A stretch of 64,000 bases of DNA from Burkholderiales bacterium (GCA_035560005.1 DATMAN010000101.1:37818-101817), one strand, 5' to 3'; counted from the stretch's first letter, positions 33,389 through 54,933 are shown. Notes: generated from the letters alone by a model not told the origin. Numbers and translations are program-made.

Positions 33389-33404
33389 GTAGGGCTTTTC
33401 CTCC

Positions 33405-33436
33405 AACGGCCGGCAACCAAACCGGCCGTTTTTTGG
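33405..33436 (+). terminator. Rho-independent terminator after the receptor gene
   Basis: AACGGCCGG-caaccaaa-CCGGCCGTT followed by TTTTGG. Confidence 0.75.
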
Positions 33437-33454
33437 ATCCTCGCCCGCAGTCCG

Positions 33455-33473
33455 CAAAATGATTATGATTCGC
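33455..33473. promoter_or_regulatory. Fur-box-like site upstream of the cytochrome c-FTR1 gene
   Basis: CAAAATGATTATGATTCGC matches the Fur consensus at 13/19 positions (hand count). It lies 28 nt upstream of ATG 33501. Confidence 0.6.
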
Positions 33474-33500
33474 GTTACTTGATGCAGACGATGGGCCGGC

Positions 33501-35414: not shown

Positions 35415-35440
35415 TGATCGTAGAGCTACTGGAGGCAACA

Positions 35441-38066: not shown

Positions 38067-38077
38067 TTGCGGCCGCC

Positions 38078-39182: not shown

Positions 39183-39725
39183 CTACCTTCCGGGCAGCAT
39201 GCGCTGGAAAACGCCATCCTTGTCGACCAGCAGATGCTTCAACGCCGCGACCACGTGCACCACGATGAGTGCCATGAGCAGGACCGCCGTGGTGCCGTGG
39301 ATGCCTTGCAGAAAGTCGTAGATCTCCTTGTTCTCCGGTCCGAGCGGGGGAATCTTGAACAGGCCGAAGTAGGTCACGCCGAACTTCGTGAACTGGGAGG
39401 CGGAAAACCCGGCCAGCGGCATGACGATCAGGCACAGATACAGCAGCGCATGGCTGATCCTCGAGGCGCGTACTTGCCATCCCGGAACCGAAGGGGGTAA
39501 CGGGGGGGGAGGGTTCCTGTAGCGCCACCAGAGGCGCAACAGCACCACCAGCCCGGTCGTCAGTCCGATCGACTTGTGGAGGTTGTAGAAGAACGAACGT
39601 TCGGGTGTGCCGCGCGGGATGTCGGTCATGTAGAGACCGAGGCCGATCAACGTCAGGACCAGCACCGCGGTGATCCAGTGCAGCGCAATCGCCAAGGTCG
39701 AATAACGCTGCGCGTTCTCGGACAT
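39183..39725 (-). CDS. Cytochrome b561 family protein
   Basis: Four TM helices with conserved His residues (ALHWITAVLVL, HKSIG, HALLYL, HVVAALKH), as in CybB. Confidence 0.85.
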   Translation of the reverse strand: MSENAQRYSTLAIALHWITAVLVLTLIGLGLYMTDIPRGTPERSFFYNLHKSIGLTTGLVVLLRLWWRYRNPPPPLPPSVPGWQVRASRISHALLYLCLIVMPLAGFSASQFTKFGVTYFGLFKIPPLGPENKEIYDFLQGIHGTTAVLLMALIVVHVVAALKHLLVDKDGVFQRMLPGR

Positions 39726-40091: not shown

Positions 40092-42371
40092 ATGCATCCG
40101 CCAATCCGGCATGTCGTGCTTGCGATCGCCTTATTGCGAGCACTGGCTGCCGCAGCACAGAATCCCGCCACCGAGCTGGAGGCTCCGACGATCGAAGTGA
40201 TCGGTACCACGCCTCTCCCCGGCTTGGGCACGCCGGTCAATCAGGTGCCGGCTAACGTTCAGGCCGCGACCGGCAACGACATTCGAGCGCAGGCGACGGC
40301 CAACCTCGGGGAGTACCTCGACAACAACCTGGGGAGCGTCACCGTCAACCACGGCCAGAACAACCCCTTCCAGCCTGACGTGAATTTCCGGGGACTTTCG
40401 GCCTCGCCCTTGCTCGGCACGCCGCAAGGGGTGTCGGTGTTCATGGATGGGGTGCGCATCAACGAGCCGTTCGGTGACGTCGTGAACTGGGACCTTGTGC
40501 CGCAGAACGCGATCTCCACCATCAACCTCATTCCGGGCTCCAATCCGGTCTTCGGCCTGAACACGCTGGGCGCAGCACTCGCGATCAACACCAAGTCCGG
40601 CTTTCAGTATCCCGGAGGATCCATCTCGGCCCAGGCCGGTTCCTGGGGGCGCAGGGTCGGCGAGTTCGAGTACGGCGGCCACGGCGACAAGAACGACTGG
40701 TTCCTTGCCGGCACATGGTTCGACGAGGATGGCTGGCGCGACTTCTCGCCCAGTGAAGTCCGGCAGCTGTTCACCAAAGCAGGACGCGAAGAGGCGGACA
40801 CGGATTTCGACGTCAGCCTGATGCTCGCGGACAATGACCTGCAGGGAACACAAGCCTTGCCGCTGTCATTCCTCGGCAACCGCGAGCAGGCGTACACCTG
40901 GCCGGACCGGAATCAGAACGAGCTGCTGTTCCTCAACGGCAGGGCCAGTCATTTCATCGCGGAGGACCGTCTCCTCGCCGGCAATCTGTACATTCGCCGT
41001 TACAAGAACGAGAACTTCAGCAGCAACGTCAACGATGATTGCGAGGAAATCGTCGGCAACTGCGCGATCGGAATCCTCAGCGGTGGCGCCGATCCGCAAG
41101 CCATCAACGACCTCAGTGAGATCAGAACAAAGGGGCTCGGTGGCTCCCTGCAGATGACCTTCCTCGACGAGCTGGCCGGCCGCAAGAATCAGCTCACGGT
41201 TGGGATCAGCGCAGATCTCGGCGATACCACCTTCACCCAGTTCGAGGAGGAGGCCGATTTCACCACCGACCGGGGAACGGTGGGAAGCGGGGTCTTCACG
41301 CTGGAAACCGACGTCCAGACCAAGAACGGCTACTACGGAATCTATCTCACCGATACAGTATCGCTGAGCGATCAACTGTCGCTCACCGTTTCCGGACGAT
41401 ACAACTATGCCAGGGTCAGGATCGAGGATCGGACAGGAACCGAACCGCAGCTCAACGGGGACCACAAGTTCACACGCTTCAATCCAGCGGTGGGTTTGAA
41501 CTTGAATCCGTCGCCGACGCTGACCGCGTACGTTGCCTACAGCGAGGGCATGCGCGCGCCGACTCCCGTGGAGCTGACCTGCGCAGACCCCAATGCACCG
41601 TGCCGGCTACCGAACAATTTCCTCGCCGACCCTCCGCTCGAAAAGGTCGTGTCCAAAACCATGGAAGCGGGCGCAAGAGGCAGGCTTTCTCCGGATATCG
41701 GCTGGAGTCTTGCCGTCTACAACACGGATCTGGTCGACGACATTCAGTTCATCAGTGCCGCTGGCGCGGGCGTCAACGCGGGCTTCTTCGACAACGTGGG
41801 CAAGACTCGTCGCCGTGGAGCGGAGTTGGGAGCCTTCGCGACGCTGGGTTCGCTAAGGCTCGTGGCGAGCTACGCCTATCTGAGAGCGACTTTCGAGAGC
41901 GCGTTCGCGATTGCCAACGAAGTCAATTCCTCTGCGGTCGATACCGACGGCGATACCGAGCCCGATACGATCTTCGTGAATCCCGGAGACCGGATCCCGG
42001 GGTTTCCCGATCACGCGTTGAAGCTGCGCGTCGAATACGGGCTGTCTGAAAAGTTCGTGCTGGGCGCAAATCTCCATTACTTCAGCGCCCAGTTCGCGCG
42101 CGGGGACGAAAACAACCAGGACGCCAACGGCAAGATCCCCGGCTACACGCTGGTCAACCTTGACGCACGCTATCAGGCCGCCCGGCGGCTGCAGATCTTC
42201 GCCCGTGTGCAGAATCTGTTCGACAAAGAGTACGAAACGCTCGGCGTGCTGGGAGAGAATTTCTTCGTCAGCGGCACCTTCGATGCATCAAACGTGCAGC
42301 CCGAGCAGTTTCGTTCGGTCGGCGCGCCGCGCGCCGTCTGGGCAGGGCTCAGGTACCAGTTCGCGAATTGA
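40092..42371 (+). CDS. TonB-dependent outer-membrane receptor (substrate unknown)
   Basis: ATG 40092 follows an AGGGAGGAA SD. Signal peptide, TonB box TIEVIG, plug motifs (NFRGLSASPLLGTPQGVSVFMDGVRINEPFG) and a C-terminal ending LRYQF. Confidence 0.88.
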   Translation: MHPPIRHVVLAIALLRALAAAAQNPATELEAPTIEVIGTTPLPGLGTPVNQVPANVQAATGNDIRAQATANLGEYLDNNLGSVTVNHGQNNPFQPDVNFRGLSASPLLGTPQGVSVFMDGVRINEPFGDVVNWDLVPQNAISTINLIPGSNPVFGLNTLGAALAINTKSGFQYPGGSISAQAGSWGRRVGEFEYGGHGDKNDWFLAGTWFDEDGWRDFSPSEVRQLFTKAGREEADTDFDVSLMLADNDLQGTQALPLSFLGNREQAYTWPDRNQNELLFLNGRASHFIAEDRLLAGNLYIRRYKNENFSSNVNDDCEEIVGNCAIGILSGGADPQAINDLSEIRTKGLGGSLQMTFLDELAGRKNQLTVGISADLGDTTFTQFEEEADFTTDRGTVGSGVFTLETDVQTKNGYYGIYLTDTVSLSDQLSLTVSGRYNYARVRIEDRTGTEPQLNGDHKFTRFNPAVGLNLNPSPTLTAYVAYSEGMRAPTPVELTCADPNAPCRLPNNFLADPPLEKVVSKTMEAGARGRLSPDIGWSLAVYNTDLVDDIQFISAAGAGVNAGFFDNVGKTRRRGAELGAFATLGSLRLVASYAYLRATFESAFAIANEVNSSAVDTDGDTEPDTIFVNPGDRIPGFPDHALKLRVEYGLSEKFVLGANLHYFSAQFARGDENNQDANGKIPGYTLVNLDARYQAARRLQIFARVQNLFDKEYETLGVLGENFFVSGTFDASNVQPEQFRSVGAPRAVWAGLRYQFAN

Positions 42372-42424
42372 CGCAACGCGCGAGGGGTACCGAGCCCGTA
42401 CTGCCTAGCGCCCGACTCGCCTGC

Positions 42425-44596
42425 TCAGAATGTGTAGCTGGCGGACAGTCCAAGCATGTAATTGCGCCCGGGTGCGGGCTCGTAATAGCGCCGGTTCGAT
42501 TCGTTGACGATGACCGAACCGACATACTCTTCGTCCAGCAGATTATCGATCCTCACGAACTGCGTCAGCCTCCAGCCGCCAGTGCGCTGTTCGAAACCGG
42601 CGCGCCAGTTGAAAATCGTATAGCTGTCCGCTGATTCGTCGTTAAGATCATTGGTGAACACTTCGTCTACCCACCGTCCCTCGATCGCTGTGGAAAAACC
42701 GCTCTCGGCATGCCGCCAGCGGACCTCCGCAAACGCGGTACTCTGCGGAATGCCCGGGATGCGATTGCCGGCGGGAACGGTTGCATTGGGGCCAGCCACC
42801 GAAGTGCAGAATCCAACACACGTTCCGAAGCTCGTGTCGAATTCGGCTTTGATGTACGTGTAGTTGGCGGCGGCCGAGAACCCGGCGGCAAGCTCGGAAT
42901 CCATCGCGATTTCGAAGCCTTGACGGGTCGTGCTCTCCACGTTCTGGAACACCGATCTGCCGCCCGAGTTGCTGAATACGACGATCTCGTTGTCGGTGTC
43001 GATCCTGAACAAGGCTGCGTTCAGGCGGGTGGCGTCGCCGATCAGCGCTTTCGCTCCTATCTCGAGATTGGTGCTCTCCGCCGGCTTGAGGTCGAAGTTG
43101 AACCCGTTGACCGTGGCGGAAGTCGACCGGTAGGCCAGCTCGGCGAAAGTCGGCGTCTCGAAACCCTTCCCGGCGTTGGCATAGACGTTGAGCGTGGGCG
43201 TCACTTTCAGGATCAGACCCGCGACCGGCGTGGTGTCGCGGAACTCGATGTTGCCGCTGTCGTCGCCGTTTGTGCCAGTGATGAAGAAATCCTCGGTCTT
43301 GAACTTCACGGAGGTGTGCCGAATGCCTGCATGAATGCTCCAGCGGTCGGTCAGATCGAGTTGAGTCTGCAGGAACTGATCGAAGTTGAAGACCGTGTTG
43401 TCCTCGTTGCGCACGAGCGCGCCGATGTTCCCGGCGTTATTGTCGAAAGCCCTGCGTGTTTCCTTCATTCGGTCGTAGTTCAGGCCCGCGGTAACCGCCA
43501 ACGCCATCCCTCCCACGGACATCCGGCGAGTCCATCGCCCGTCGACACCACCGAAGTCCCGATCGAGGTCAATCACCCCTCGGGGAGTGATGGAGAGAAA
43601 CTGCTGAACCGTCCGCTTGCCCGAATAGGCGAGCAGTCTGATGGAATCCTGTTCGCCGAGCCTGTGCTGCAATACCGTTCCTGCCTGCAGGTTTTCGATG
43701 CTCTTGCGGGTGTTCTGAGTCTCTGCATTGGTGCCAGCCTGGTCGCGATCCTGGGCCAGCTGCGTCTTGTCCAGACCGAGCGGGTCCTGGGTTTCGGGCT
43801 GGTTCAAGTAGTTCGTCACCAAGGTAATCTTCGTATCATCGCTTACGTCCAGACGCAGCTTTCCGTTGACCGTGTCGCGACGAGCAGCGCTGTGATCGCG
43901 GAAACCTTCTGTGGCGAAGCGCGCAGCCTCGATGACGTAGTTCACCAGCCCCATCTGCCCGCCCGCCTTCAGTCCCATGCGACTGGAGTCGAAGCTTCCG
44001 AACCACGCGGAACCGGTCAGCGTGTGTCGCTGGGGTCCATCCTCCGTGAACACGTTGATGACACCACCAGACGAATTCCCGTACAACGCAGAAAAAGGCC
44101 CGCGCATGACCTCCACGCTTCTGGCGGAGCTCAGGTCGATGTTCGCCGCCTGTCCCTGCCCGTCCGGCATCGTGAGAGGAATTCCGTCGGAGATTATCCT
44201 GATGCCCCGTACGCCGAAGGTCGAACGCGCGCCGAAGCCGCGGATCGAGATCTGCAGATCCTGGGCGTAGTTCTGGCGATTGTTGGCGACCACGCCGGGA
44301 GCCTTCACGAGTACTTCGGACAGATTGACTTGCGGCTGCTGTTCCTGGATCTGTTGCTGGCCGAAGGCGTCGACCGACACCGGCAAGTCGAAGGCGGACT
44401 GTTCGATGCGCGTCGGCGTTACCACGATCGGCGCAGTGCGCAGGGAATCCTCGGCCGTCTGTTGGGCAACCGCTGGGCATGGCGCGAGGCTGGCGGCAAT
44501 CAGCGCGATGAATACAGGACCACCGATCGATGCGGCTGACAGGTGACGAGCGGAGCCGCGCTTGGCGCGGCTTCCCTTCTGGTTGGCGGGGCTCAT
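42425..44596 (-). CDS. TonB-dependent receptor, YncD/PqqU-like (candidate PQQ receptor)
   Basis: ATG 44596, signal peptide and TonB box PIVVTPTR. The plug NRQNYAQDLQISIRGFGARSTFGVRGIRIISDGIPLTMPDGQGQ and the C-terminus EYVGSVIVNESNRRYYEPAPGRNYMLGLSASYTF resemble the YncD subfamily. The subfamily call is from memory and unverified. Confidence 0.85.
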   Translation of the reverse strand: MSPANQKGSRAKRGSARHLSAASIGGPVFIALIAASLAPCPAVAQQTAEDSLRTAPIVVTPTRIEQSAFDLPVSVDAFGQQQIQEQQPQVNLSEVLVKAPGVVANNRQNYAQDLQISIRGFGARSTFGVRGIRIISDGIPLTMPDGQGQAANIDLSSARSVEVMRGPFSALYGNSSGGVINVFTEDGPQRHTLTGSAWFGSFDSSRMGLKAGGQMGLVNYVIEAARFATEGFRDHSAARRDTVNGKLRLDVSDDTKITLVTNYLNQPETQDPLGLDKTQLAQDRDQAGTNAETQNTRKSIENLQAGTVLQHRLGEQDSIRLLAYSGKRTVQQFLSITPRGVIDLDRDFGGVDGRWTRRMSVGGMALAVTAGLNYDRMKETRRAFDNNAGNIGALVRNEDNTVFNFDQFLQTQLDLTDRWSIHAGIRHTSVKFKTEDFFITGTNGDDSGNIEFRDTTPVAGLILKVTPTLNVYANAGKGFETPTFAELAYRSTSATVNGFNFDLKPAESTNLEIGAKALIGDATRLNAALFRIDTDNEIVVFSNSGGRSVFQNVESTTRQGFEIAMDSELAAGFSAAANYTYIKAEFDTSFGTCVGFCTSVAGPNATVPAGNRIPGIPQSTAFAEVRWRHAESGFSTAIEGRWVDEVFTNDLNDESADSYTIFNWRAGFEQRTGGWRLTQFVRIDNLLDEEYVGSVIVNESNRRYYEPAPGRNYMLGLSASYTF

Positions 44597-44717
44597 GTTC
44601 TCTTTCTTTCTGCTTGGTTCGGGTCTTCGTTCTGAAACGCCCGGGGACTGCGCCCCGGCGGGCGGGCCCACTTCAAGTCCGGCTCGGGCGGCGGCGCTGC
44701 ATCCGGCCCGGGCCGCC

Positions 44718-44750
44718 AAAAAAAAAGGCTGCTCGAAAGCAGCCTTTTTC
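44718..44750 (-). terminator. Stem-loop with flanking A- and T-runs after pqqA-2 (bidirectional terminator/attenuator shape)
   Basis: AAAAAAAAA-GGCTGCT-cgaa-AGCAGCC-TTTTT. On the minus strand it lies 13 nt after the pqqA-2 stop. Confidence 0.75.
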
Positions 44751-44763
44751 TGAGTACAGAAGC

Positions 44764-44835
44764 TTAGCGGTTGGCGATATACATCGTGACTTCAAAGCCA
44801 AAACGCATTTCGCTGTATTCGGGTTTGGTCCACAT
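44764..44835 (-). CDS. pqqA: Coenzyme PQQ precursor peptide PqqA (second, inverted copy)
   Basis: Hand translation [23 protein letters not shown] has the PqqA E-x3-Y signature. A GAGAGGAG SD lies upstream. Too short for the ORF track. Confidence 0.88.
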   Translation of the reverse strand: MWTKPEYSEMRFGFEVTMYIANR

Positions 44836-44944
44836 GGCAAAGCTCCTCTCTCAAGAATTCGTCGGGAAGGCTGCCTCCGCAGCCGTCGGAACCTATTCTG
44901 TGAGTCCGGGCCGGCCCGAGCCACAGCAAAAGATTGAAATGCGC

Positions 44945-44961
44945 CTCATGATTTTCATTAG
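44945..44961. promoter_or_regulatory. Near-perfect 7-3-7 palindrome CTCATGA-ttt-TCATTAG upstream of pqqA-2
   Basis: 13/14 arm positions are symmetric. The same motif occurs upstream of pqqA-1, and the flanking GCGCATTT/GGCATTT is also shared. Confidence 0.5.
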
Positions 44962-44997
44962 TTTGACTCGCCGTCCGGCAACCATATCTCAAAAAAA

Positions 44998-45642
44998 TCA
45001 TGGGTCTATAAGACCTTCCCGCATTGCGATGATGGCCAGTTCCGCCGAGTTGGACGCGCCGAGCTTCTGCTTGATGTTGTAGAGGTGGGTGCCGACCGTG
45101 CGGGGGCTCAACGACATCACCTCCGCGATCTCCTGCACCGACTGGCCCCTGGCCAGCGCCAGAAAGACCTTGAACTCCTTCTCGCTGAGCGTGTCGAGCG
45201 GGTTGCGGTTCTTGGACAGCTGCTGAACCGCCAGTTGCTGCGCGATCTCGGGCTCCAGGAAAGTCTTGCCCTGATGGACCTGGCGGATCGCCTGGATCAG
45301 CGCTTCGGGCGCGCTGCGCTTTGTGAGATAGCCGGCCGCGCCCGCTTTCAGGACGCGCCTCGCGTGCATCGCGTCTTCGTGCGCGGAGAGAACCAGAATT
45401 CTCGCGGCCGCATCCTTGGCCAGGATGCGGTCGATAGCCTCCAGACCACCAATGCCCGGCATCGAAATGTCCATCACGGTCACGTCCGGCTTCGCCTCGG
45501 TGAAACGGCGAACCGCCTCCTCACCGCTTTCCGCTTCGGCGACGACCCTGATGTCCGACGACCCTTCCAGCAGCAGGCGAAATCCCATTCTCACCACTGC
45601 ATGGTCGTCCACGAGCATCACGTTGATGGTTGCGCCGGTCAT
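44998..45642 (-). CDS. NarL/FixJ-family response regulator (REC + LuxR-type HTH)
   Basis: VMLVDDH...DVTVMDISMPG receiver motifs with a C-terminal GerE HTH (LSEKEFKVFLALARGQSVQEIAEVMSLSPRTVGTHLYNIKQKLG). Confidence 0.9.
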   Translation of the reverse strand: MTGATINVMLVDDHAVVRMGFRLLLEGSSDIRVVAEAESGEEAVRRFTEAKPDVTVMDISMPGIGGLEAIDRILAKDAAARILVLSAHEDAMHARRVLKAGAAGYLTKRSAPEALIQAIRQVHQGKTFLEPEIAQQLAVQQLSKNRNPLDTLSEKEFKVFLALARGQSVQEIAEVMSLSPRTVGTHLYNIKQKLGASNSAELAIIAMREGLIDP

Positions 45643-47399
45643 TCATTCACCTCTGCCCGTTCGGGCGCGGCGCGCGAAGCCAGCGGAATCACCGCTCGAA
45701 CGCTCACACCCTTCCCGGGCTCGCCGCAGACTTCCAGCCTGCCCCCGAGCCCCTGCACCCTCTCCCTCATGCCGATCAGGCCGAATCGGGTGGCTTCCAG
45801 CTCGTTGCGTTGCGACAGGCCCTTGCCGTTGTCGCTCACCGTGACGCTCACCGCATCCTGGCCGGATTCCTCGGTCTCGCGCTTCACCGTGATCTCGGCG
45901 CGCGTGGCCTGCGCATGCCGCACGATATTGGTCAGGCACTCCTGCACCATTCTGTAGACGGTGATGTTGACCGATTCGTCGAGCGCGTCGAGTTCCCCGC
46001 TCATGTGCAGCTCGCAATCGATCTCCGGGTGGCGTTCGCGCCAGTTGGCCACCGCCGCGCGCAGCGTATCTCCCAAGCCCAAATGGTCCAGGGTGCTTGG
46101 CCGCAACTGCCGGATCATGCCGTGGACCACATCGTAGATGTGGCTCGCCACCGACACGATCGTGCGGGCGTTGGCATGGGTTTCAGGAGAGTCCCCCGTC
46201 CGGTTCGCGATGGCGGTGCCGATGGTCTTGATCGCCGTGACGCACTGGCCGAGTTCGTCATGCAGCTCGCGCGCGATGCTGCGGCGCTCCTCCTCGATGC
46301 GCGCCTGGATGATCTGGGTAAGTCTGCGGTTGTGCTCCAGCTCGCGCTCCGCCGCCTGCATCCGCTTGTGCTCGGTGATGTCGCGCAGCGCACAGATCTC
46401 GCCGATGACTGCATCGGAACCGGGATCGATCAGCGGTGCGGCGGACAACGCGACGTCGATCAGGCGTCCAGTCTTGGTCATGCGCTGGGTTTCGAAGTTC
46501 TCGACGCGCTCCCGGCGCCGGATCACAGCCAGATTTTCCGCGATCTCGTTCTCCAGGCCCGGCGGCGTCAGCAGCGTGGCGGAGCGTCCCAGGATCTCAT
46601 CCGCGGAGTACTCGAAGAGCTGCGCCGCGGCGGCATTCCAGAACGACACTCGTCCCTCGAGGTCGTGGATCATGATCGCGTCGCTCGCCTGCTGCGCGAC
46701 CAGGGCGAGCCGGCGGTTCTCGTCCATCGCTTCCTCCAACGCGGCGGCCATGCGGTTGAAGGTGTGGCTGATGGATGCGAATTCGGGAAGCGTGTAGTCG
46801 GGCAGCCGCACGTCGAAGCGTCCGCGTTCCATTTCCGACAGGCCGCCGAGAATCGAGCGCAGCGGCCGCAGCGAACGTCCCAGGAGCCAGAACACCAGGG
46901 CATTGAGCAGCACGAAGAAGCCCAGCACGATCCAGAGAAAGTTCTTCGTGTCGTCCCACGCATCGAGGATCGACCGGGATGCGTCGGGCGTGATCACCAC
47001 GGTGCCGCCCGGCAGGTTGAGGCGAAACTCGTCGAGCTTCGGTCCGACCAGCCTTGCGAACCAGTCGGGCGCCCAGCGTCCGGCCTTGTAGATCGGAGGC
47101 GGCGACTCGTAGATCAATCTGTCGTGCTCGTCGTAGAGCCGGATCTCGTTGGCCCGCACCCGGCCGACGTGCCGCAGGAACGCGAGCAACGCCTGGTTGC
47201 GCGATTCGGCCGTCTCACGGTGAACTCCGGCAATGACCGTCTCCATGAGCTGCACGGTCACCCGGGTTCCCGCCTCCATCTCCTCTCGGATCGAGCGGCG
47301 CATGTCTTGCAGGACCACGTGTCCGGCGCCCACGGTGAAGGCGATCATCACCAGCGTGATCACCAGGTTGATGCGAAAACGCAGGCTCATGCGCTTCAT
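45639..47399 (-). CDS. Sensor histidine kinase (2 TM, periplasmic domain, HAMP, PAS, HisKA_3, HATPase_c)
   Basis: H-box RSIARELHDELGQ, plus a PAS segment and N/G boxes. ATG 47399 (MKRMSLRFRINLV...) overlaps the pip stop, and its own stop overlaps the regulator start (ATGA). Confidence 0.88.
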   Translation of the reverse strand: MKRMSLRFRINLVITLVMIAFTVGAGHVVLQDMRRSIREEMEAGTRVTVQLMETVIAGVHRETAESRNQALLAFLRHVGRVRANEIRLYDEHDRLIYESPPPIYKAGRWAPDWFARLVGPKLDEFRLNLPGGTVVITPDASRSILDAWDDTKNFLWIVLGFFVLLNALVFWLLGRSLRPLRSILGGLSEMERGRFDVRLPDYTLPEFASISHTFNRMAAALEEAMDENRRLALVAQQASDAIMIHDLEGRVSFWNAAAAQLFEYSADEILGRSATLLTPPGLENEIAENLAVIRRRERVENFETQRMTKTGRLIDVALSAAPLIDPGSDAVIGEICALRDITEHKRMQAAERELEHNRRLTQIIQARIEEERRSIARELHDELGQCVTAIKTIGTAIANRTGDSPETHANARTIVSVASHIYDVVHGMIRQLRPSTLDHLGLGDTLRAAVANWRERHPEIDCELHMSGELDALDESVNITVYRMVQECLTNIVRHAQATRAEITVKRETEESGQDAVSVTVSDNGKGLSQRNELEATRFGLIGMRERVQGLGGRLEVCGEPGKGVSVRAVIPLASRAAPERAEVNE

Positions 47400-48376
47400 C
47401 GGCGGACCCGCCCGCGCATGTCGTCCGTGGCGCGACGCAATGCACCGGCGATCAAAGGATCCAGCGCCGAGTGTCCGCCGTTCTCGACCATCCTGAGCTC
47501 GGCGTTCGGCAGCCGTCGCGCCAGCTCGGCCGCCGCAAGGGGAGGACACACCATGTCCAGCCGCCCCTGGACGAGGATGGCCGGCACATCACCCACTCTC
47601 CAGGCACGCTCCAGCAGCTCGTTGTCGCGAAGGAAGCAACCGTTGGCCAGGAAGTGCAGCTGAATGCGCGCGCGATGCAGCGCGTCCGCAGCGCCGGAAG
47701 CCGAAGGCATCGGTGCACTGCCGCTGCCCAGGCGCATGACCGCCTCTTCGTAGCCGACCCAAGCCTGGGCTGCGCGGGTGTGTGTTTGCATGTCGGGATG
47801 ATTGACCAGAGCATGATACCGCGCGAGCAACCCCTCGCTGCACTCCGCGGTCGCGGTCAGCAGCCGCCGGGCGCAGGGGACGAACCTTCGCAGTCCGTCG
47901 ACGTACCACCGTATTTCCGTCTCGGTTCCCAGAAAAACGCCGCGCAGCACCAGGCCGGCGACACGCTCGGGATGGGTCTCAGCGTAGGCGAGCGCCAGCG
48001 TAGCGCCCCATGAACCACCGAACAGCAGCCACCTTTGCACGCCCAGATGAATCCGCAACCGCTCGATATCCGCCACCAAGTGCCAGGTCGTGTTCTGCTC
48101 GGTGCATCCCGCAGGCAGCGATTGACCGCAGCCGCGCTGATCGAACAGCACGATCCGGTAGAAGGCGGGATCGAAGTACTGGCGCTGATGGGGACGGATA
48201 TGGCTTCCGGGACCACCGTGCAGGAAGAGGACGGGAAATCCTTCCCGATTGCCGCATTGCTCGACATGAAGCGAATGCAAAGCATCGACCGCCAGGCGCT
48301 CGATGCGATAAGGCTCCAGGGGCGGATACAGCGCGCTTTGCTGCTCGGTACCAGCCACGGGGCTGGAGGGAATCAC
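47396..48376 (-). CDS. pip: Proline iminopeptidase (prolyl aminopeptidase, S33 alpha/beta hydrolase)
   Basis: LYPPLEPY, VEQCGN..G.PVLFLHGGPG and nucleophile elbow GGSWGATLALAY are canonical Pip motifs. Confidence 0.88.
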   Translation of the reverse strand: MIPSSPVAGTEQQSALYPPLEPYRIERLAVDALHSLHVEQCGNREGFPVLFLHGGPGSHIRPHQRQYFDPAFYRIVLFDQRGCGQSLPAGCTEQNTTWHLVADIERLRIHLGVQRWLLFGGSWGATLALAYAETHPERVAGLVLRGVFLGTETEIRWYVDGLRRFVPCARRLLTATAECSEGLLARYHALVNHPDMQTHTRAAQAWVGYEEAVMRLGSGSAPMPSASGAADALHRARIQLHFLANGCFLRDNELLERAWRVGDVPAILVQGRLDMVCPPLAAAELARRLPNAELRMVENGGHSALDPLIAGALRRATDDMRGRVRR

Positions 48377-49761
48377 GAATCCTGGAGGCGAAAGACGATC
48401 GGCACCGTGACGGTGAGCTCCCGACCGCGCAGCCCTTCCGGGGCCTGCGGGAGCGGAGTGGCCCGACGCACCATTTCCATCGCCTCTCTGTCCAGCACCT
48501 CACGACCGGAACTCTTGGCGAGCGCGATCTCGGTCACCCTTCCGTCTGCCGCGATTCTCAACTGAACTTCCGTGGTGCCCTCCCAACCGCGGCGCTGGGC
48601 GATGACCGGGTACTTCTGATAGCGCTTGATCTGGGTGGACAGTTGCTGGCTGTACGCCACCGTCAATTCGCGCGGGATCGATCGAGACGGCACTGCCTTC
48701 GGTACCGGCGGCGCAGGGGCCGGGACGACGGGTCCTGGTCTGGGCGCAGGAGGCGAGACCGTCGGCAGGGTCGGCGTTGCCGGAACGGGCGACGACAGCG
48801 TCGGCTCCGCCGTCCGCGGGCGCACAACGGGCATCGGCGCCGGGAGGGTGGGGGGTGTGGCAGCGGCGACGTTCACCGCTGGCGGAGCAGGCCGCTCGAT
48901 GCTCGGCTCCACGCGCGCCGGCAACTGAGACAGCGGCTGCGGTTCGGACCGCGTGGCGAGCGGCGCGAGGCGGGGCGCGGGCTGCGCCGGCGGTTGTACG
49001 ACCGGGGTGACGTTGACCGCCGGCGGAGCAGGCCGCTCGATGCTCGGCTCCACGCGGGGGGGCAACTGCGCAACGGGCCGCGGTTCGGTCCGCTCCACGG
49101 CCGGCGCCGGCCGTGGAGCCGGTTGAGGTGGTGCCAAGTCGCGGACGACAGGTGCCACCGGCTGCGGCTGTGGGTCGACTCGCGCCGTAGGCTGGGCAAC
49201 CGGGGGAGGCTCGAGCCGAGCGCCCGGAGGCGGCGGAAGGACAGCCGCCGGCGCTGGAGGGATGGGCTGGGGCTGCTCAGGCAGGGCGACGCGCTGTTCC
49301 GGTTGAGGTTCGGGGCGAGCGCTGACGAGGGGCTCGGGCGACGGTGGTACTGCACGCGGAGGTGACGGGGTCAGCTCGGCCCGAGTCGGGGCCGGCAGCT
49401 CTGGGTCAGGCGGCGCAAGCACGGGCTGCGGCTGCTCGATCACGGGCTCCGGACGCGAAATCAGCGGTTCGATCGGGCGCGGCTCAGGCGCAACGACGGC
49501 TGGCTGTCTGAGCGGCTCGGGAACCGGTTGCGGCGCTGGCCGCTGCTCCCGCCGCACGGGTTGCTCCCGGGGGATCAGCTCGACGCTCAGGACCTTCGGG
49601 GGCGGCTCGATGCGGACCGAGCGGAACCCGGGGACCACAGCGATCAGCAGCGCGTGGATCAGGACGGAGGCAGCTAGCGCGACCTGGAACGGTCGCTCCC
49701 GATACCACTGGCCAAACGGATCGGGGAGAAACAAGCCCCTGTCGAGCGCCACGTCAGACAT
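48373..49761 (-). CDS. tonB: TonB-family energy transducer with unusually long proline-rich spacer
   Basis: N-terminal TM helix (VALAASVLIHALLIAVVP), a ~330-aa Pro-rich region, and a C-terminal TonB_C domain (YPVIAQRRGWEGTTEVQLRIAADGRV...). ATG 49761 is preferred over the track's TTG 49779. Confidence 0.85.
   Translation of the reverse strand: MSDVALDRGLFLPDPFGQWYRERPFQVALAASVLIHALLIAVVPGFRSVRIEPPPKVLSVELIPREQPVRREQRPAPQPVPEPLRQPAVVAPEPRPIEPLISRPEPVIEQPQPVLAPPDPELPAPTRAELTPSPPRAVPPSPEPLVSARPEPQPEQRVALPEQPQPIPPAPAAVLPPPPGARLEPPPVAQPTARVDPQPQPVAPVVRDLAPPQPAPRPAPAVERTEPRPVAQLPPRVEPSIERPAPPAVNVTPVVQPPAQPAPRLAPLATRSEPQPLSQLPARVEPSIERPAPPAVNVAAATPPTLPAPMPVVRPRTAEPTLSSPVPATPTLPTVSPPAPRPGPVVPAPAPPVPKAVPSRSIPRELTVAYSQQLSTQIKRYQKYPVIAQRRGWEGTTEVQLRIAADGRVTEIALAKSSGREVLDREAMEMVRRATPLPQAPEGLRGRELTVTVPIVFRLQDS
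48868..49094. repeat. Imperfect tandem duplication (141-nt period) inside the tonB spacer
   Basis: An identical 35-nt core GGCGGAGCAGGCCGCTCGATGCTCGGCTCCACGCG occurs at 48881..48915 and 49022..49056. It encodes RVEPSIERPAPPAVNV twice. Confidence 0.85.
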
Positions 49762-49811
49762 GTGACTCAGCCTATGCAAGCCTTTGACGTGAGTAAAGTT
49801 TCGCGGCGAAA

Positions 49812-49828
49812 CTCATGAAAATCATGAG
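49812..49828. promoter_or_regulatory. Perfect 7-3-7 palindrome CTCATGA-aaa-TCATGAG upstream of pqqA-1
   Basis: Read directly from the sequence. It lies in the divergent tonB/pqqA-1 intergenic region, 160 nt upstream of ATG 49988. Confidence 0.55.
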
Positions 49829-49987
49829 AGGCATTTGGTGATTTTTCTGTGGGAGAAGCTTCGTTCTTTTTTTGAGAATGCCGTCGGAGCTTTCCGCGGG
49901 GGAAACTGTCTATCGCCTCGGTGGCTCTGCGGCGAGCGATCGCCGCTCGGAGAAGTCGAATGTTAATTCAACTTTCTGGAGACGCCT

Positions 49988-50059
49988 ATGTGGACCAAAC
50001 CCGAGTACAGCGAAATGCGCTTTGGCTTTGAAGTCACGATGTACATCGCCAACCGCTGA
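49988..50059 (+). CDS. pqqA: Coenzyme PQQ precursor peptide PqqA
   Basis: Hand translation [30 protein letters not shown] lies upstream, and the gene sits immediately upstream of pqqBCDE. Too short for the ORF track. Confidence 0.93.
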
Positions 50060-50078
50060 TCGCGGGCGGGTAAACCGA

Positions 50079-50108
50079 CGAAAGCCCCTGTAGGGGCTTT
50101 CGTTTTTT
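50079..50108 (+). terminator. pqqA-pqqB intergenic stem-loop (attenuator/terminator)
   Basis: CGAAAGCCCC-tgta-GGGGCTTTCG followed by TTTTTT, 22 nt before the pqqB ATG. Confidence 0.8.
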
Positions 50109-50130
50109 CACCACGCCGCCGACAACAGTC

Positions 50131-51045
50131 ATGAGAATAGGAGTGCTCGGCTCAGCCGCCGGTGGGGGATTCCCCCAGTGGAACTGCAATTGCCGCAACT
50201 GCGATGGGGTCCGCAAGGGAACGATCCGCGCCCGGCCGCGCACGCAATCGTCGATCGTCCTTTCCGCCGACTCCGTCAACTGGGTGCTGTTCAACGCTTC
50301 CCCGGACCTGCTGTACCAGTTCCGCAGCTTTCCGCAGCTGCAGCCTGGACGGGCGATACGGGATACGGCAGTGCGCTCGATCGTTCTGATGGACGCGCAG
50401 ATCGACCACACCACCGGGCTGCTGATGCTGCGCGAAGGCAAGCCGCTGGAGATCTACTGCACGGACATGGCGCGCGAAGACCTCACCAGCGGCAATCCGC
50501 TGTTCAATATCCTTCAGCACTATTGCGGCGTAAACTGGCATCAGATTCCGACCTATCCGGGCAACCGTTTCGCGGTGCTGGGCGCCGAGGAGCTGTACTT
50601 CACGGCCGTGCCTCTGAAAAGCAAGGCACCGCCCTACTCCCCTCACCGCGACAACCCGCACGAGGGAGACAACATCGGCATGCGCATCTTGGACCCGCGC
50701 ACCGGAAAGGTGCTGTTCTACGCGCCGGGCCTGGGCGAAATCGAGCCGCATCTCCAGCCGTTCCTCGAGGAAGCCGACTGCCTGATGGTGGACGGGACGT
50801 TCTGGACCGACGACGAGATGATCCGGCTGGGCATTTCCGGCAAGCGCGCACGCGACATCGGACATCTTCCGCAATCGGGCCCCGGCGGCATGATCGAGGT
50901 GCTGCGCCCGCTCAAGGCGGAGCGCAAGATCCTGATCCACATCAACAACACCAATCCCATCCTGGACGAGGATTCGCAGGAGCGCCGTCAGCTCGAGGCG
51001 GCCGGAATCGAGGTTGCGTGGGATGGCATGGAAGTGGTTCTCTAG
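50131..51045 (+). CDS. pqqB: PQQ biosynthesis protein PqqB (MBL-fold)
   Basis: [24 protein letters not shown] is the canonical PqqB N-terminus. 304 aa. Confidence 0.95.
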
Positions 51046-51074
51046 ATTTTCCGAAAGTCTGCAACGGAGCGATT

Positions 51075-51794
51075 ATGGGTGCCGCAGAGCAACTGCCTTG
51101 GAGCCGGGACGAGTTCGAACAGCAACTGCGCGCAAAAGGCAAGCGCTACCACATCTATCACCCGTTTCATATCGCCATGAACAGCGGGCAATGCACTCGC
51201 GAGCAGGTGCAGGGCTGGGTGTACAACCGCTTCTACTACCAGATCAGCATTCCGATCAAGGACGCGGCGATCCTGTCCAACATGCCGGACCGGGAGCAGC
51301 GCCGGCAGTGGATCCAGCGCATCATCGATCACGACGGCACCGAGGGCGAGGAAGGCGGCATCGAGGCGTGGCTGCGGCTCGGGGAAGCCTGCGGCTTGAA
51401 ACGCGAGGATGTGACGTCCTTGCGCTACGTACTCCCAGGCGTGCGCTTCGCTGTGGATGCCTACGTGAACTTCGCGCGGCGGGCGCCGTGGCAGGAAGCG
51501 GTGTGCTCTTCGCTCACCGAGCTGTTTGCTCCGGAAATCCACCAGAAGCGGCTCGATAACTGGCCGCAGCACTATCCCTGGATCGAAGCGGAAGGTTATG
51601 CGTACTTCCGCAAGCGGCTCTCCGAGGCGCGGCGCGACGTGGAGCACGGACTGCAGGTCACGCTCGACTATTTCCGGACGCGGCGCGATCAGGAACGCGC
51701 GCTCGATATCCTGCAGTTCAAACTGGATGTATTGTGGACGATGCTCGACGCCATGCAGATCGCCTATGGCATCGGGCCCGCGCAACGCCAATGA
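51075..51794 (+). CDS. pqqC: Pyrroloquinoline-quinone synthase PqqC
   Basis: YHIYHPFH...[10 protein letters not shown]...RIIDHDG are canonical PqqC motifs. ATG 51075 is internal to the artefactual track ORF 50178..51794. Confidence 0.95.
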
Positions 51795-52072
51795 GTGTCA
51801 TCAGCGAAGACATGGTGCCCGTGCTGGCAAGGCACTACCGCTTCCAGTTCGAACCGGCGCAGCAAGCCTACGTCCTTCTCTACCCGGAAGGCATGGTCAA
51901 GCTCGGTGCCAGCGCGGGCGAAATCATGAAGCGGGTGAATGGCACTGCGACCGTCTCGAGCATCATCGCCGACCTGCAGGCGGCCTATCCGGGCGTCGAC
52001 CTGAGGGCCGACGTCATCGATTTCCTGGAGCATGCACATGGAAAAGGCTGGATCCACGCCAAACGGCCCTAA
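51791..52072 (+). CDS. pqqD: PQQ biosynthesis peptide chaperone PqqD
   Basis: 93 aa with a PqqD fold sequence ([37 protein letters not shown]). ATG 51791 overlaps the pqqC stop (ATGA). Confidence 0.92.
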
Positions 52073-53201
52073 GCCGCCGCTGTGGCTGCTGGCGGAACTG
52101 ACGTACCGCTGCCCGCTGCATTGCGTGTTCTGCTACAACCCGGTCGACTACGCGACCTACGGCACCGAACTGTCCACCGAGGACTGGATGCGCGTGCTCA
52201 GGCAAGGCCGCGAGCTGGGCGCGACGCAGCTTGGCTTCTCCGGCGGTGAACCGTTGATGCGCGACGACCTGGAAGCGCTGGTCGCCGAGGCGCGCAAGCT
52301 CGGCTACTACTCCAACCTCATCACCTCGGGAGTGGGCCTGAACGAAAAGCGCATCGCAGCTTTCAAGGAAGGCGGGCTCGATCACATCCAGGTCTCGTTC
52401 CAGGATTCCACCCGCGAGATGAACGACTTCCTGTCCAGCACCCGCACCTTCGAGCTGAAGCAGCGGGTCGCCAGACTGGTCAAGCGGTACGACTACCCGA
52501 TGGTGCTCAACGTCGTGCTGCACCGGCTCAACATCGACCACGTGCAGCAGATCCTGGAGATGGCCGAGCAGCTCGAAGCGGAGTACGTCGAACTCGCCAA
52601 CACGCAGTACTACGGCTGGGCGTACGTCAACCGCGACCAGCTGCTGCCCAGCCGGGAACAGTTGCAGCGCGCCGAGGAGGTGACCAACCGGTTTCGCGAA
52701 CGCGTCGGAAACAAGATGAAGATCTACTTCGTCGTGCCCGACTATTACGAAAACCGGCCCAAGGCGTGCATGAACGGCTGGGGCGCCGTGTTTCTGACCG
52801 TGACCGCAGACGGCTTGGCGCTTCCCTGCCACGAGGCCCGAATGCTGCCGGGGCTGAGTTTCCCGAATGTCCGCGAACACGATCTGCGCTGGATCTGGTA
52901 CGACTCGCCCGGATTCAACGTCTACCGTGGAGACGGCTGGATGAAGGAGCCCTGCCGCAGCTGTCCGGAAAAGGTGAAGGACTTCGGCGGCTGCAGATGT
53001 CAGGCGTATTTGCTCACCGGAGATGCCGCCAACGCCGATCCGGTCTGCGACAAATCGCCTTTCCATGGACTGGTCACCCAGGCGGTGCAGCGCGCCCAGA
53101 AGCCGGCCCCCGCGGTGTCTGTAAAACCGGTCATTCTGTATCGAGACGACAAGAACTCACGCAGCCTCGCCGGCCGCAAGGACAACGCTCCGGTCGCATG
53201 A
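52032..53201 (+). CDS. pqqE: PqqA peptide cyclase PqqE (radical SAM/SPASM)
   Basis: PLWLLAELTYRCPLHCVFCYNP radical-SAM motif and C-terminal SPASM cysteines (CRSCPEKVKDFGGCRCQAY). The start may be 52032 or 52038. Confidence 0.95.
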   Translation: MHMEKAGSTPNGPKPPLWLLAELTYRCPLHCVFCYNPVDYATYGTELSTEDWMRVLRQGRELGATQLGFSGGEPLMRDDLEALVAEARKLGYYSNLITSGVGLNEKRIAAFKEGGLDHIQVSFQDSTREMNDFLSSTRTFELKQRVARLVKRYDYPMVLNVVLHRLNIDHVQQILEMAEQLEAEYVELANTQYYGWAYVNRDQLLPSREQLQRAEEVTNRFRERVGNKMKIYFVVPDYYENRPKACMNGWGAVFLTVTADGLALPCHEARMLPGLSFPNVREHDLRWIWYDSPGFNVYRGDGWMKEPCRSCPEKVKDFGGCRCQAYLLTGDAANADPVCDKSPFHGLVTQAVQRAQKPAPAVSVKPVILYRDDKNSRSLAGRKDNAPVA

Positions 53202-54145
53202 ATGCGCCTCAGCCCGTCGACACGCGCGCCGCGATCCGCGCCCAAGGTCTGACCAAGCGCTACGGCGAGCTGCTCGCGGTAGACGGGCTCGACCTGGATA
53301 TTCCCTCGGGCCAGTTCTTCGGCCTGCTCGGTCCGAACGGCTCCGGCAAGACGACCACCATCCACATGCTCGCCACGCTGATCCGGCCCACACGCGGCAC
53401 GGCACAGGTTGCGGACTTCGACGTGGTGCGCCAGGCAACGCGCGCGCGCGAGGCCATCGGGCTGGTCTTCCAGGAATCTGCGCTGGATCGCACGCTCACC
53501 GTCGCCGAGAACCTGCGCTTCGCCGGATTCCTTCAAAACCTGCCGGCGCGCATCATCGCGGAGCGCAGCCGCGAGCTGCTCGAGCTGTTTGGTCTGGGTG
53601 AACGGCGCGACAGCCCCGTTGCCGCCTTGTCGGGTGGCATGCGCCGTGCGCTCGACATCGTGCGCGGCGTGCTGCACGAGCCCAGGATCCTGTTTCTGGA
53701 CGAACCGACCATCGGGCTCGATCTGCCCAACCGGCGCAGGATCTGGCGCTTCATCGAGCGCCTGCGCGCCCGCACCGGCATGACGGTTCTGCTCACCACT
53801 CACTACCTGGAAGAAGCCGATGGCTGCGATCGCGTGGCCTTCATCCGCGCCGGGAAACTGGTGGAGACCGGCGCGCCGTCCGAACTGGTCCAGCGCCTCG
53901 GCAGTCGCATCGTGGAGGTCGAGGCGCAGGATCTGGAAGCGCTCATGGGTTTCCTGGAACCCAGGCTCGGCCCGGGGCTGCGCGACGGGGAAATCGCCAT
54001 GTTTCGCTGCCGGGAGCAGGAGCTCCACGCGCTCGCCGGGCTGCAGGCCGATATCGGCACCAAAGCCTCGGCGTGGCGGGTGCGGCGCCCGAACCTGAAC
54101 GATGTCTTTCTCTGGGTCGCGGCGGGGAAGGCCTTGGCCCGATGA
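53198..54145 (+). CDS. ABC transporter ATP-binding protein (ABC-2/DrrA-like exporter type)
   Basis: Walker A GPNGSGKTT, signature LSGGMRRAL and Walker B ILFLDEPTIGLD. ATG 53198 overlaps the pqqE stop (ATGA). Confidence 0.9.
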   Translation: MNAPQPVDTRAAIRAQGLTKRYGELLAVDGLDLDIPSGQFFGLLGPNGSGKTTTIHMLATLIRPTRGTAQVADFDVVRQATRAREAIGLVFQESALDRTLTVAENLRFAGFLQNLPARIIAERSRELLELFGLGERRDSPVAALSGGMRRALDIVRGVLHEPRILFLDEPTIGLDLPNRRRIWRFIERLRARTGMTVLLTTHYLEEADGCDRVAFIRAGKLVETGAPSELVQRLGSRIVEVEAQDLEALMGFLEPRLGPGLRDGEIAMFRCREQELHALAGLQADIGTKASAWRVRRPNLNDVFLWVAAGKALAR

Positions 54146-54933
54146 AACTGCGGCCGGTATACGCCGTCCTCGAGCGCGAGGTCGTGCGCATGTTTCGCCA
54201 GCGGGGGCGGCTGCTGTCCGCCATGGTGCGTCCCTTGATCTGGCTGTTCGTGATCGGCGCCGGTTTCGGAGCGATCATGGATCAGGCGCGCGGAGTGCCG
54301 TATCAGTACTTTCTGGTCCCAGGGGTGCTGGGCATGACCATGTTGTTCGGCGCCATGCTTGCTGCGCTGACGACGGTCTACGACAAGGAATCCGGAGTGA
54401 TGAGAATGATGATCGTCGCGCCGCTGCCCCACGCGTGGATCGTGATCGCGAAACTGCTTTCCGCGGCGCTCGCCGGAATCGTCCAGGCGTTGCTGCTGCT
54501 CGTCGTGCTCGCGCTGCTCGGCTATCTCGAGCCCCGGACCGACTGGATTCTGCTTTCGGTCGCGCTGGTGACGACCTCGCTGGCGTGCGGAGGCATCGGC
54601 ATGCTGACCGCCTCGTTCACCCGCACGCTGGACAACTTCGCGGCAATCATGAACTTCGTGATCTTCCCGGTGTTCTTTCTGAGCGGTTCGCTCTACCCGG
54701 TGCACGATCTGCCGCAGGCGCTGCGCTGGATCGCCACCCTCAACCCCTATACCTACGGTGTCGATCTTCTGAAGCACGCCACCCTGCCGCGCGTGGCCGA
54801 CTTCGGCGCAGGATTCGATCTTGCCGTGCTGGCGGGCTTCACGCTGGCTGCGCTGGCAGCCGCGAGCTGGCGCTTCTCGCAGGAGTCGGCCTACGAGCCG
54901 ATGATCCACGTGCTCGCCGGCAGGCGCGGCTAG
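54142..54933 (+). CDS. ABC-2 type transporter permease
   Basis: 263 aa with six predicted TM helices and an ABC-2 membrane-domain pattern. ATG 54142 overlaps the ATPase stop (ATGA). Confidence 0.85.
   Translation: MKLRPVYAVLEREVVRMFRQRGRLLSAMVRPLIWLFVIGAGFGAIMDQARGVPYQYFLVPGVLGMTMLFGAMLAALTTVYDKESGVMRMMIVAPLPHAWIVIAKLLSAALAGIVQALLLLVVLALLGYLEPRTDWILLSVALVTTSLACGGIGMLTASFTRTLDNFAAIMNFVIFPVFFLSGSLYPVHDLPQALRWIATLNPYTYGVDLLKHATLPRVADFGAGFDLAVLAGFTLAALAAASWRFSQESAYEPMIHVLAGRRG

Follow-up and report, generated by a model that had tools for sequence, protein, structure and literature searches.

Two outward-facing pqqA genes in a Burkholderiales PQQ locus, one of them ahead of a predicted PqqU-type importer gene

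The two pqqA genes and the receptor gene behind pqqA-2

The window analysed here, a stretch of 64,000 nucleotides from a Burkholderiales bacterium (GCA_035560005.1, DATMAN010000101.1:37818-101817), carries two copies of pqqA, the gene for the precursor peptide of pyrroloquinoline quinone (PQQ). The copy linked to pqqB, pqqA-1, lies on the plus strand (49988..50059), and the copy linked to a response regulator gene, pqqA-2, on the minus strand (44764..44835). A preliminary description of this DNA had given both copies one identical peptide, and the two translations indeed yield the same 23 residues, including the Glu-x3-Tyr cross-link pair (E15/Y19). The four differences it had counted over the 72 nucleotides are also present and all silent: GAG/GAA at codon 6, CGC/CGT at codon 11, TAC/TAT at codon 19 and TGA/TAA at the stop. 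The PqqA model TIGR02107 recognised both copies, matching residues 2-22 of the peptide with 48.7 bits against a cutoff of 20. Each gene has its own Shine-Dalgarno sequence, AGGAG at 44843-44847 on the minus strand for pqqA-2 and GGAG at 49978-49981 for pqqA-1, and each is followed by a hairpin with a U tract, as had been reported. A repeat search gave the pqqA pair as an inverted repeat (70 nucleotides, 96% complementary, 5152 nucleotides between the arms) longer than any other in the region. The flanks, which had been said not to align apart from one palindrome, contain a second inverted repeat of 44 nucleotides (80%, 44921-44964 and 49809-49852) that takes in the palindrome and spans the promoter. 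Since the receptor HWQ40168 and the regulator HWQ40169 have consecutive accessions at NCBI, pqqA-2 is apparently missing from that record, and the gene calls of four independent assemblies (L201-L204) include neither pqqA.

Directly downstream of pqqA-2, on the same strand, is a gene that the preliminary description had overlooked (42425..44596, minus strand). It encodes a TonB-dependent receptor of 723 residues with a signal peptide and a TonB box, which matches E. coli YncD/PqqU (PDB 6V81, 9C4O) over the full length at E ~1e-161, the next receptor being at 6e-16. The NCBIfam PqqU model NF041535 was by far the best, with 678.7 bits (equivalog cutoff 1200), and the next model reached 192 bits. 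Because lanthanide receptors are often mislabelled as PqqU (bioRxiv 10.64898/2026.07.10.737718), we checked the residue signature of PqqU, which according to Munder et al. (2025, PMC12124388) includes an aromatic residue at Y99 as well as R304 and R365. The positions Y99/K274/R304/R365/R536 correspond to F127/K298/R328/R381/R547 in the window receptor, so that the signature of Munder et al. is found there, and the product is predicted to be a PqqU-type PQQ importer. Its public names are only "TonB-dependent receptor" or "iron complex outermembrane receptor".

We compared the window with loci and contigs of relatives, labelled L001, L002 and so on up to L204. PqqU was used to scan species-representative genomes, which gave 80 loci with a best match of 65% identity, and metagenome contigs were scanned for the 11-residue core of the PqqA peptide, which was the source of L091, L150, L194, L121, L165 and L200. 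Four independent assemblies, each from a different sample and 99.9% identical to the window, have the regulator-pqqA-2-pqqU junction with an unchanged copy 2; only L201 extends as far as pqqA-1, and it has both copies. The preliminary description had allowed for an assembly artefact or a strain-specific rearrangement, and neither fits this recurrence of the junction together with the presence of the pair in L001, L002, L091 and L200. It had also proposed a synteny comparison, to see if the inverted pair occurs together with the enclosed module in related genomes. This is so in the same four relatives, and partial instances are seen in L150, L194, L121 and L165.

The gene order of L001 and L002 is that of the window (ABC<pqqEDCB<pqqA / tonB>pip>HK>RR>pqqA>pqqU, where HK and RR are the histidine kinase and the response regulator), with identities to the window of 65% and 62%, respectively, for PqqU and 65-88% for PqqB-E. 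L091 (GC 0.44) and L200 (GC 0.64) have the full outward-facing pair around tonB-pip-kinase-regulator without pqqU after pqqA-2, and the link between pqqA-2 and pqqU is therefore not obligatory. In these two, what comes after the regulator-linked pqqA is a cytochrome b561 gene, with an ortholog behind pqqU in L001 and L002. The window has its own cytochrome b561 gene (39183..39725, minus strand, PF01292) two genes beyond pqqU, and it is 60-70% identical to the gene after pqqA-2 in L200 and L091 or after pqqU in L001 and L002 (coordinates 286-978 in L200, 418-987 in L091 and 12199-12732 in L002). From the gene orders across relatives, the stable core is thus tonB-pip-kinase-regulator-[palindrome]-pqqA-2, with pqqU and cytochrome b561 as downstream cargo.

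The preliminary description had the pqqA pair bracket the module between them, with one copy detached from pqqBCDE. This picture has to be revised, given that pqqA-2 is not an orphan but heads its own unit, with pqqU behind it on that strand, and that the geometry faces outward because two divergent units each begin with a pqqA. With moderate confidence, we read the region as a compact PQQ locus of divergent units sharing one operator, in which pqqA-2 would lead the importer unit, rather than as a module framed by repeats.

Selection on the peptides and age of the duplication

Synonymous (dS) and non-synonymous (dN) divergence between paralogs was obtained for five pqqA pairs. In the window dS was 0.30 and dN 0, in L001 1.38 and 0, in L002 1.44 and 0.055, in L200 0.61 and 0.055, and in L091 2.01 and 0.045. 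Summed over the five pairs, 32.5 synonymous stand against 8.5 non-synonymous differences, where the neutral expectation is about 18% synonymous; the binomial p of this excess is ~1e-16, for pairs that are not fully independent. Amino-acid differences are confined to positions 3, 20 and 21, and RFGFEVTMY, E15 and Y19 are constant in the five genomes, the cross-link pair being invariant in both members of every pair. With dN/dS far below 1 in all five, the sequences indicate that both peptides are under purifying selection, and both pqqA copies are probably functional, the promoter element, Shine-Dalgarno sequence and hairpin being kept in every copy. The preliminary description had likewise judged both copies probably functional, and had attributed their identity to purifying selection or gene conversion. 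Selection is borne out, whereas continuous conversion appears unnecessary to account for the conservation, as dS is 1.4-2.0 in sister genomes and the paralogous peptides differ by one or two residues in three of the five genomes; some concerted change remains.

The duplication itself is old. Codon 6 is GAG in the pqqB-linked and GAA in the regulator-linked copies of the window, L001 and L002 alike, and the copy-specific hairpins are orthologous across the same three genomes, from which it follows that the duplication predates their split. We consider it very improbable that the identity of the copies results from a recent duplication or ongoing gene conversion, or that the 72-bp inverted repeats flip the 5-kb segment between them. 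The window paralogs are closer to each other than those of L001 and L002, as such a reading would have it, but 3 changes in 12 synonymous sites against 8 in 12.7 is not a statistically meaningful difference, and paralog dS elsewhere is 1.4-2.0. Two further points speak against it: codon 6, the flanks and the hairpins have copy-specific forms that are orthologous across three genomes, and copy 2 with its four differences is unchanged in all four assemblies, as is copy 1 in the one that covers both. The residues S8 in the window and F7 in L200 are each common to both paralogs of their lineage, which favours some concerted change; they could reflect occasional conversion or co-selection, perhaps via recognition by PqqD/E. 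As for a flip, the inverted configuration was seen in no genome compared. An invertible switch was also considered and rejected, since every assembly has each copy's own flanks joined to the same downstream genes.

A different role for pqqA-2 would be that of a recruited promoter-and-leader cassette for pqqU and cytochrome b561, the peptide itself being dispensable. The promoter, Shine-Dalgarno sequence, open reading frame (ORF) and hairpin do move together, and they sit where pqqU begins in relatives. However, a dispensable peptide would gather non-synonymous changes and stops, yet in five lineages, with dS of up to 2, the E-x3-Y core has not changed and dN/dS stays far below 1, so that this explanation is improbable. 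Leader-peptide attenuation by pqqA-2 was tried as a candidate and rejected: the stop codon lies ~15-20 nucleotides before the hairpin and no alternative anti-terminator pairing is evident.

The palindrome, the hairpins and the neighbouring genes

Both pqqA genes are preceded by a 17-bp palindrome, CTmATGAAAATCATGAG, a 7-3-7 inverted repeat that we call the PQQ box. The box of the pqqA-2 unit (CTAATGAAAATCATGAG, 44945..44961, minus strand) lies 36 nucleotides after the stop codon of the regulator gene, and the other (CTCATGAAAATCATGAG, 49812..49828, plus strand) lies in the divergent intergenic region between tonB and pqqA-1. They are the only two sites in the 64 kb at up to three mismatches, where 0.03 would be expected by chance. 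A -10-like element follows each box at 45 nucleotides, CAGAAT at 44895..44900 (minus strand) for pqqA-2 and GAGAAT at 49874..49879 (plus strand) for pqqA-1, the AGAAT core of the latter starting 46 nucleotides after the box. When the pqqA and pqqU promoters were aligned and counted, AnAAT was found 45-46 nucleotides 3' of the box, and the pqqU promoter of L016 has ACAAT at 46 nucleotides. The 13-nucleotide core of the box (at most one mismatch) occurs upstream of every pqqA copy in the window clade, L013, L091, L150 and L200. Over 125 pqqA copies of this peptide subfamily, the box was counted in the region from -280 to -40 with up to two mismatches, and it was present in 70 of them, against 2 of 125 shuffled controls.

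The box is not restricted to pqqA. In about ten loci (L008, L016, L019, L028, L030, L038, L049, L052, L053 and L060) it stands directly before pqqU with no pqqA there, and further boxes in relatives precede tonB-kinase-regulator operons, a PQQ-dependent dehydrogenase gene (L028), genes for HAMP-HisKA_3 kinases (L013, L049) and another receptor gene. An operator would be expected to be palindromic and to keep its place ahead of genes of related function even in divergent genomes; the PQQ box does so, and the two PQQ units of the window are probably co-regulated through it. The dehydrogenase gene of L028 (5013-6869, minus strand) faces the box region divergent from tonB, and at the corresponding region of L016 (4747-6930, minus strand) and L053 there is a gene for a membrane protein of 700-727 residues with a Fer4_5 4Fe-4S domain, L054 having an ORF of the same size. 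These dehydrogenase and Fer4_5 genes hint at a wider regulon.

The window also contains a second TonB-dependent receptor gene (40092-42371, plus strand), convergent with pqqU. Its product is without the PqqU signature residues, has no solved homolog, and is ~40% identical to PQQ-box-bearing receptors in L016, L019, L053 and L054. A PQQ box upstream of it was considered and rejected, the only site having three mismatches and the wrong spacing.

The candidate for binding the box is the product of the gene next to it, a NarL/LuxR-type response regulator (44998..45642, minus strand) with REC and GerE domains (PF00072, 8.6e-30; PF00196, 1.8e-16), the domain pair of the NarL/FixJ type. NarL-family regulators bind as GerE-type dimers, for which a 7-3-7 inverted repeat is well suited. 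Orthologs of this regulator (59-86% identical) co-localise with the box, which was present in 9 of 10 loci with the ortholog and in 6 of 70 without it (Fisher p = 2e-7). The ortholog adjoins a box in many loci, among them L001, L002, L016, L019, L028, L053, L091, L150 and L200, and is divergent from one in L013, L049, L131 and L160; as measured in L016 and the window, it ends 14-36 nucleotides before the box. By analogy with its family, the regulator plausibly binds the PQQ box, as a putative ligand of that site.

It could also be that the palindrome is the operator of a transcription factor encoded elsewhere, and that the adjacent two-component system senses, for instance, lanthanides or alcohols as PedS2/PedR2 do and acts on other targets. 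Many Methylophilaceae-like pqqA contigs carry the box with no regulator gene nearby, so that another factor could bind it, a point that counts against our own reading of the locus too. The regulator also stays below the cutoff of every NCBIfam equivalog to which it was compared, the best being UvrY/SirA/GacA with 210.9 bits (cutoff 280) and ErdR reaching 65 (cutoff 390). The adjacency or divergence of ortholog and box in many loci, and the fit of the 7-3-7 repeat to a GerE-type dimer, make this alternative rather unlikely, and we retain the neighbouring regulator as the candidate in a locus of divergent units under one operator.

The hairpins behind the two pqqA genes are the other shared feature. 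After pqqA-2, AAAAAGGCUGC-UUUCGA-GCAGCCUUUUU is followed by a U tract (44718..44749, minus strand) and could be a terminator or an attenuator; the 66-nucleotide stretch folds at -25.7 kcal/mol (z = -2.05), and L001 and L002 have the very same stem, GGCTGCTTTCGAGCAGCC. After pqqA-1, CGAAAGCCCC-UGUA-GGGGCUUUCG is followed by UUUUUU (50079..50108, plus strand), and the 63-nucleotide stretch folds at -34.5 kcal/mol (z = -5.3). Both are G+C-rich hairpins directly before a U tract, as in a terminator. In an alignment of 12 pqqA copies, a hairpin with U tract followed every one, with compensatory changes at 11 of the 15 base pairs. A search with Rfam at permissive thresholds over 42000-53500 found nothing. 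Because the pqqA-1 hairpin is only 22 nucleotides from pqqB, pqqBCDE must be expressed by read-through, and in G. oxydans and other producers the pqqA promoter is reported to be the only one that serves pqqABCDE (PMC8102297). By the same logic, transcription from the pqqA-2 promoter would extend past its hairpin into pqqU, over a gap between hairpin and pqqU of 125 nucleotides in the window and ~80 in L001 and L002.

The four genes between the pqqA copies are as described earlier, for a TonB_C-domain protein, a prolyl aminopeptidase, a HAMP-PAS-HisKA_3 kinase and a REC-GerE regulator, and the domain profile matches agree with the tonB-pip-kinase-regulator content claimed for the 5-kb module. 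They run on the minus strand from 49761 down to 44998, with stop/start overlaps GTGA, ATGA and ATGA, and therefore form one tightly coupled operon. The tonB paralog (48373..49761, minus strand) encodes 462 residues with an N-terminal transmembrane helix, a long proline-rich linker and a TonB_C domain (PF03544, 2.6e-18), the anchor (...SVLIHALLIAVV...) and the Pro-rich linker being read from the translation. A 141-nucleotide tandem duplication in the linker (48865-49125; 120 nucleotides aligned, 78%) contributes to its unusual length, and Pfam gave no domain in this linker nor in the first 220 residues of the kinase. The tonB ATG lies 53 nucleotides from the box in the window, and 52-55 nucleotides in the window, L016, L028, L053 and L054. 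A -10-like TAGGCT (49769..49774, minus strand) is placed 7 nucleotides before that ATG, TAnnnT recurs 6-9 nucleotides ahead of the tonB start codon in each of the seven loci inspected (window, L001, L194, L016, L028, L053 and L054), and no Shine-Dalgarno sequence is visible there, which suggests that the mRNA of the operon is possibly leaderless.

The prolyl aminopeptidase gene pip (47396..48376, minus strand; TIGR01249, 300.6 bits with a cutoff of 259.75) overlaps the tonB stop codon by GTGA. It is translationally coupled inside the tonB-kinase-regulator operon in the window, L001, L002, L091, L200 and L121, and the tonB-kinase-regulator-pqqU modules of L016 and L028 are without it. No pqqF or pqqG is nearby and PqqA has an invariant Pro5; as a speculation, pip may help to process PqqA. 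The sensor histidine kinase of 586 residues (45639..47399, minus strand) has HAMP, PAS, HisKA_3 and HATPase domains, and its gene overlaps both pip and the regulator gene by ATGA.

On the plus strand, pqqA-1 is followed by pqqB (50131..51045; TIGR02108, 424.6 bits), pqqC (51075..51794; 239 residues, PF03070, with the exact product on record), pqqD (51791..52072; 93 residues, PF05402, ATGA overlap with pqqC) and pqqE (52032..53201), a radical SAM/SPASM gene by its domain matches. An ABC ATPase gene (53198-54145), which overlaps the pqqE stop by ATGA, and an ABC-2 permease gene (ORF 54073-54933) come next on the same strand, and this unit has overlapping stop and start codons in all genes 3' of pqqB. 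The ABC ATPase and permease are kept after pqqE in L001, L002 and L194, and in L200 the ATPase gene follows pqqE before the contig ends. The pair is a candidate PQQ exporter or PedABC-like transporter; the permease is PedC-like with 181 bits, below the cutoff of 241. Upstream of the locus, at 31232-39142, is a metal-uptake-type run with a further TonB-dependent receptor gene, a gene for an FTR1-cytochrome c fusion protein and the genes of an ABC permease and ATPase.

Proposed organisation and comparison with known systems

In the organisation that we favour, the first unit, on the plus strand, would consist of PQQ box, promoter, pqqA-1, a leaky hairpin, pqqB, pqqC, pqqD, pqqE and the ABC-2 exporter genes, and the second, on the minus strand, of PQQ box, promoter, pqqA-2, hairpin and pqqU as a PQQ-specific outer-membrane importer. 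The tonB-pip-kinase-regulator operon would lie between them, divergently transcribed from the box region of pqqA-1. The phosphorylated LuxR/NarL-type regulator would bind the palindrome as a dimer and so induce both pqqA transcripts together with the enzymes of biosynthesis, the operon that encodes the regulator itself and a dedicated TonB, and the recovery of leaked PQQ. At each hairpin and U tract most transcription would end in an abundant, stable, short pqqA transcript, with a minority of polymerases reading through, and the outcome would be much peptide substrate and little enzyme in the first unit, or little receptor in the second. pqqA-2 would thereby double the stoichiometric substrate and also serve as the first cistron of the uptake unit.

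Several points weigh against this organisation. The receptor falls short of the PqqU equivalog cutoff despite its leading score, and pqqA-2 is found without pqqU in L200 and L091. Simple consensus scans of 44400-50300 flagged neither pqqA hairpin as a terminator and gave no sigma-70 promoter, although these scans were not used as evidence. Transcription starts, binding by the regulator and the choice between activation and repression are all inferred, and pqqU of P. aeruginosa is reported to be constitutive, with no regulator identified. Finally, the 9 U residues mean that the pqqA-2 hairpin may terminate efficiently, and an AGAAT/AGAAC-like pentamer lies 22-42 nucleotides before the pqqU ATG in the window, L001 and L002, so that pqqU may have a promoter of its own.

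These last two points lead to the most serious competitor, in which a strong terminator makes pqqA-2 monocistronic, a separate promoter in the 125-nucleotide gap serves pqqU, and the box controls pqqA-2 only. The retention of pqqA-2 without pqqU in L200 and L091 would fit as well. Against such a separation, in relatives the box-bearing promoter directly precedes pqqU and occupies the corresponding place behind the regulator gene; the sole box near pqqU in the window clade is the one before pqqA-2; and the equally strong hairpin of pqqA-1 must be read through for pqqB. We regard it as possible, but distinctly less probable than a pqqA-2-led importer unit.

A broader and more tentative proposal, which we advance with doubt, is that of a Betaproteobacterial PQQ-homeostasis regulon, where a kinase-regulator pair with its own TonB would sense PQQ or quinoprotein status and one 17-bp palindrome would set synthesis, ABC-2 export and recapture by PqqU. 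If this were true, synthesis and re-uptake in the window clade would share one switch, by way of a precursor gene fronting the importer unit, and the first regulator and operator for pqqU would be known. PQQ is costly, leaks from cells and is traded in microbial communities, and producers must balance its synthesis against its recapture. At this locus the regulation of uptake versus synthesis becomes directly testable, in a circuit made up of a putative 17-bp operator, candidates for its regulator and sensor, a TonB of its own, and the importer gene downstream of the second pqqA. The operator could also be used to find more members of the PQQ regulon in uncultured Betaproteobacteria. Public annotation overlooks relevant parts of the present locus (pqqA-2 and PqqU).

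The arrangement is real and recurs in related uncultured bacteria, and its components, an extra pqqA, PqqU and LuxR-type control of pqq genes, are each already known. In our incomplete collection of papers, which makes for a weak negative, we found no pqqA heading a pqqU unit, no such palindrome and no tonB-kinase-regulator module for pqq or pqqU; nor did the papers found report a regulator of pqqU. The preliminary description had pointed to multiple pqqA copies in methylotrophs, and PMC11317620 does list such cases: Methylovorus sp. MP688 has five pqqA genes, and Methylorubrum extorquens AM1 has pqqA2 and pqqA3 as orphans. The same source reports that PqqA supply is rate-determining and that the copies are regulated. 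As in the window, extra copies of methylotrophs lie away from pqqBCDE. Methylophilaceae-like contigs of the metagenome scan commonly had pqqA copies of this peptide subfamily in tandem or as orphans. In L158, L175, L180 and L183 (GC 0.34-0.37), two different pqqA of the ...YVMNK and ...YVCNR types stand in tandem ~200 nucleotides apart, and many other contigs have a single pqqA with no adjoining pqqB. In contrast to the methylotrophs, the window has exactly two copies, facing outward around tonB-pip-kinase-regulator with the same operator and spacing, and the second copy is the first gene of the predicted PQQ-importer unit.

For four Burkholderiales genomes, Munder et al. (2025, PMC12124388, fig. 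S11) describe pqqU as syntenic with the pqq operon and in the same orientation, and propose co-regulation. These, like the window, are PQQ producers with pqqU beside the pqq genes, and L013 has this layout (pqqABCDE>pqqU), whereas in the window pqqU is on the opposite strand behind its own pqqA. Neither a second pqqA nor a two-component system, TonB or operator comes up in their account of this synteny. The window receptor resembles E. coli PqqU (YncD; 6V81, 9C4O) in its full-length alignment and in the five PQQ-contacting residues, which are conserved or conservatively replaced. However, E. coli is a PQQ scavenger without pqq genes, and in the window pqqU lies behind a predicted regulated pqqA promoter, near a dedicated TonB.

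In Pseudomonas, AgmR/PedR1/ErbR and PedS2-PedR2 are LuxR-type regulators of ped and pqq genes, and AgmR activates the pqq operon, according to a review (PMC12997753), in which "palindrom" is absent and an AgmR site upstream of pqqA was not found. The window has a NarL/LuxR-family regulator with a sensor kinase as in the AgmR system, which controls the pqq operon in Pseudomonas; the likeness to AgmR is by family only, the best NCBIfam model of the window regulator being UvrY/GacA, below its cutoff. Unlike in Pseudomonas, the kinase, regulator and TonB genes of the window form one operon inside the pqq locus. Lastly, the canonical pqqA-hairpin-pqqBCDE operon of G. oxydans (PMC8102297) shares with the window a short first cistron, a stem-loop and read-through of the downstream genes, but in the window the same cassette appears to be reused before a transporter gene instead of biosynthetic genes.

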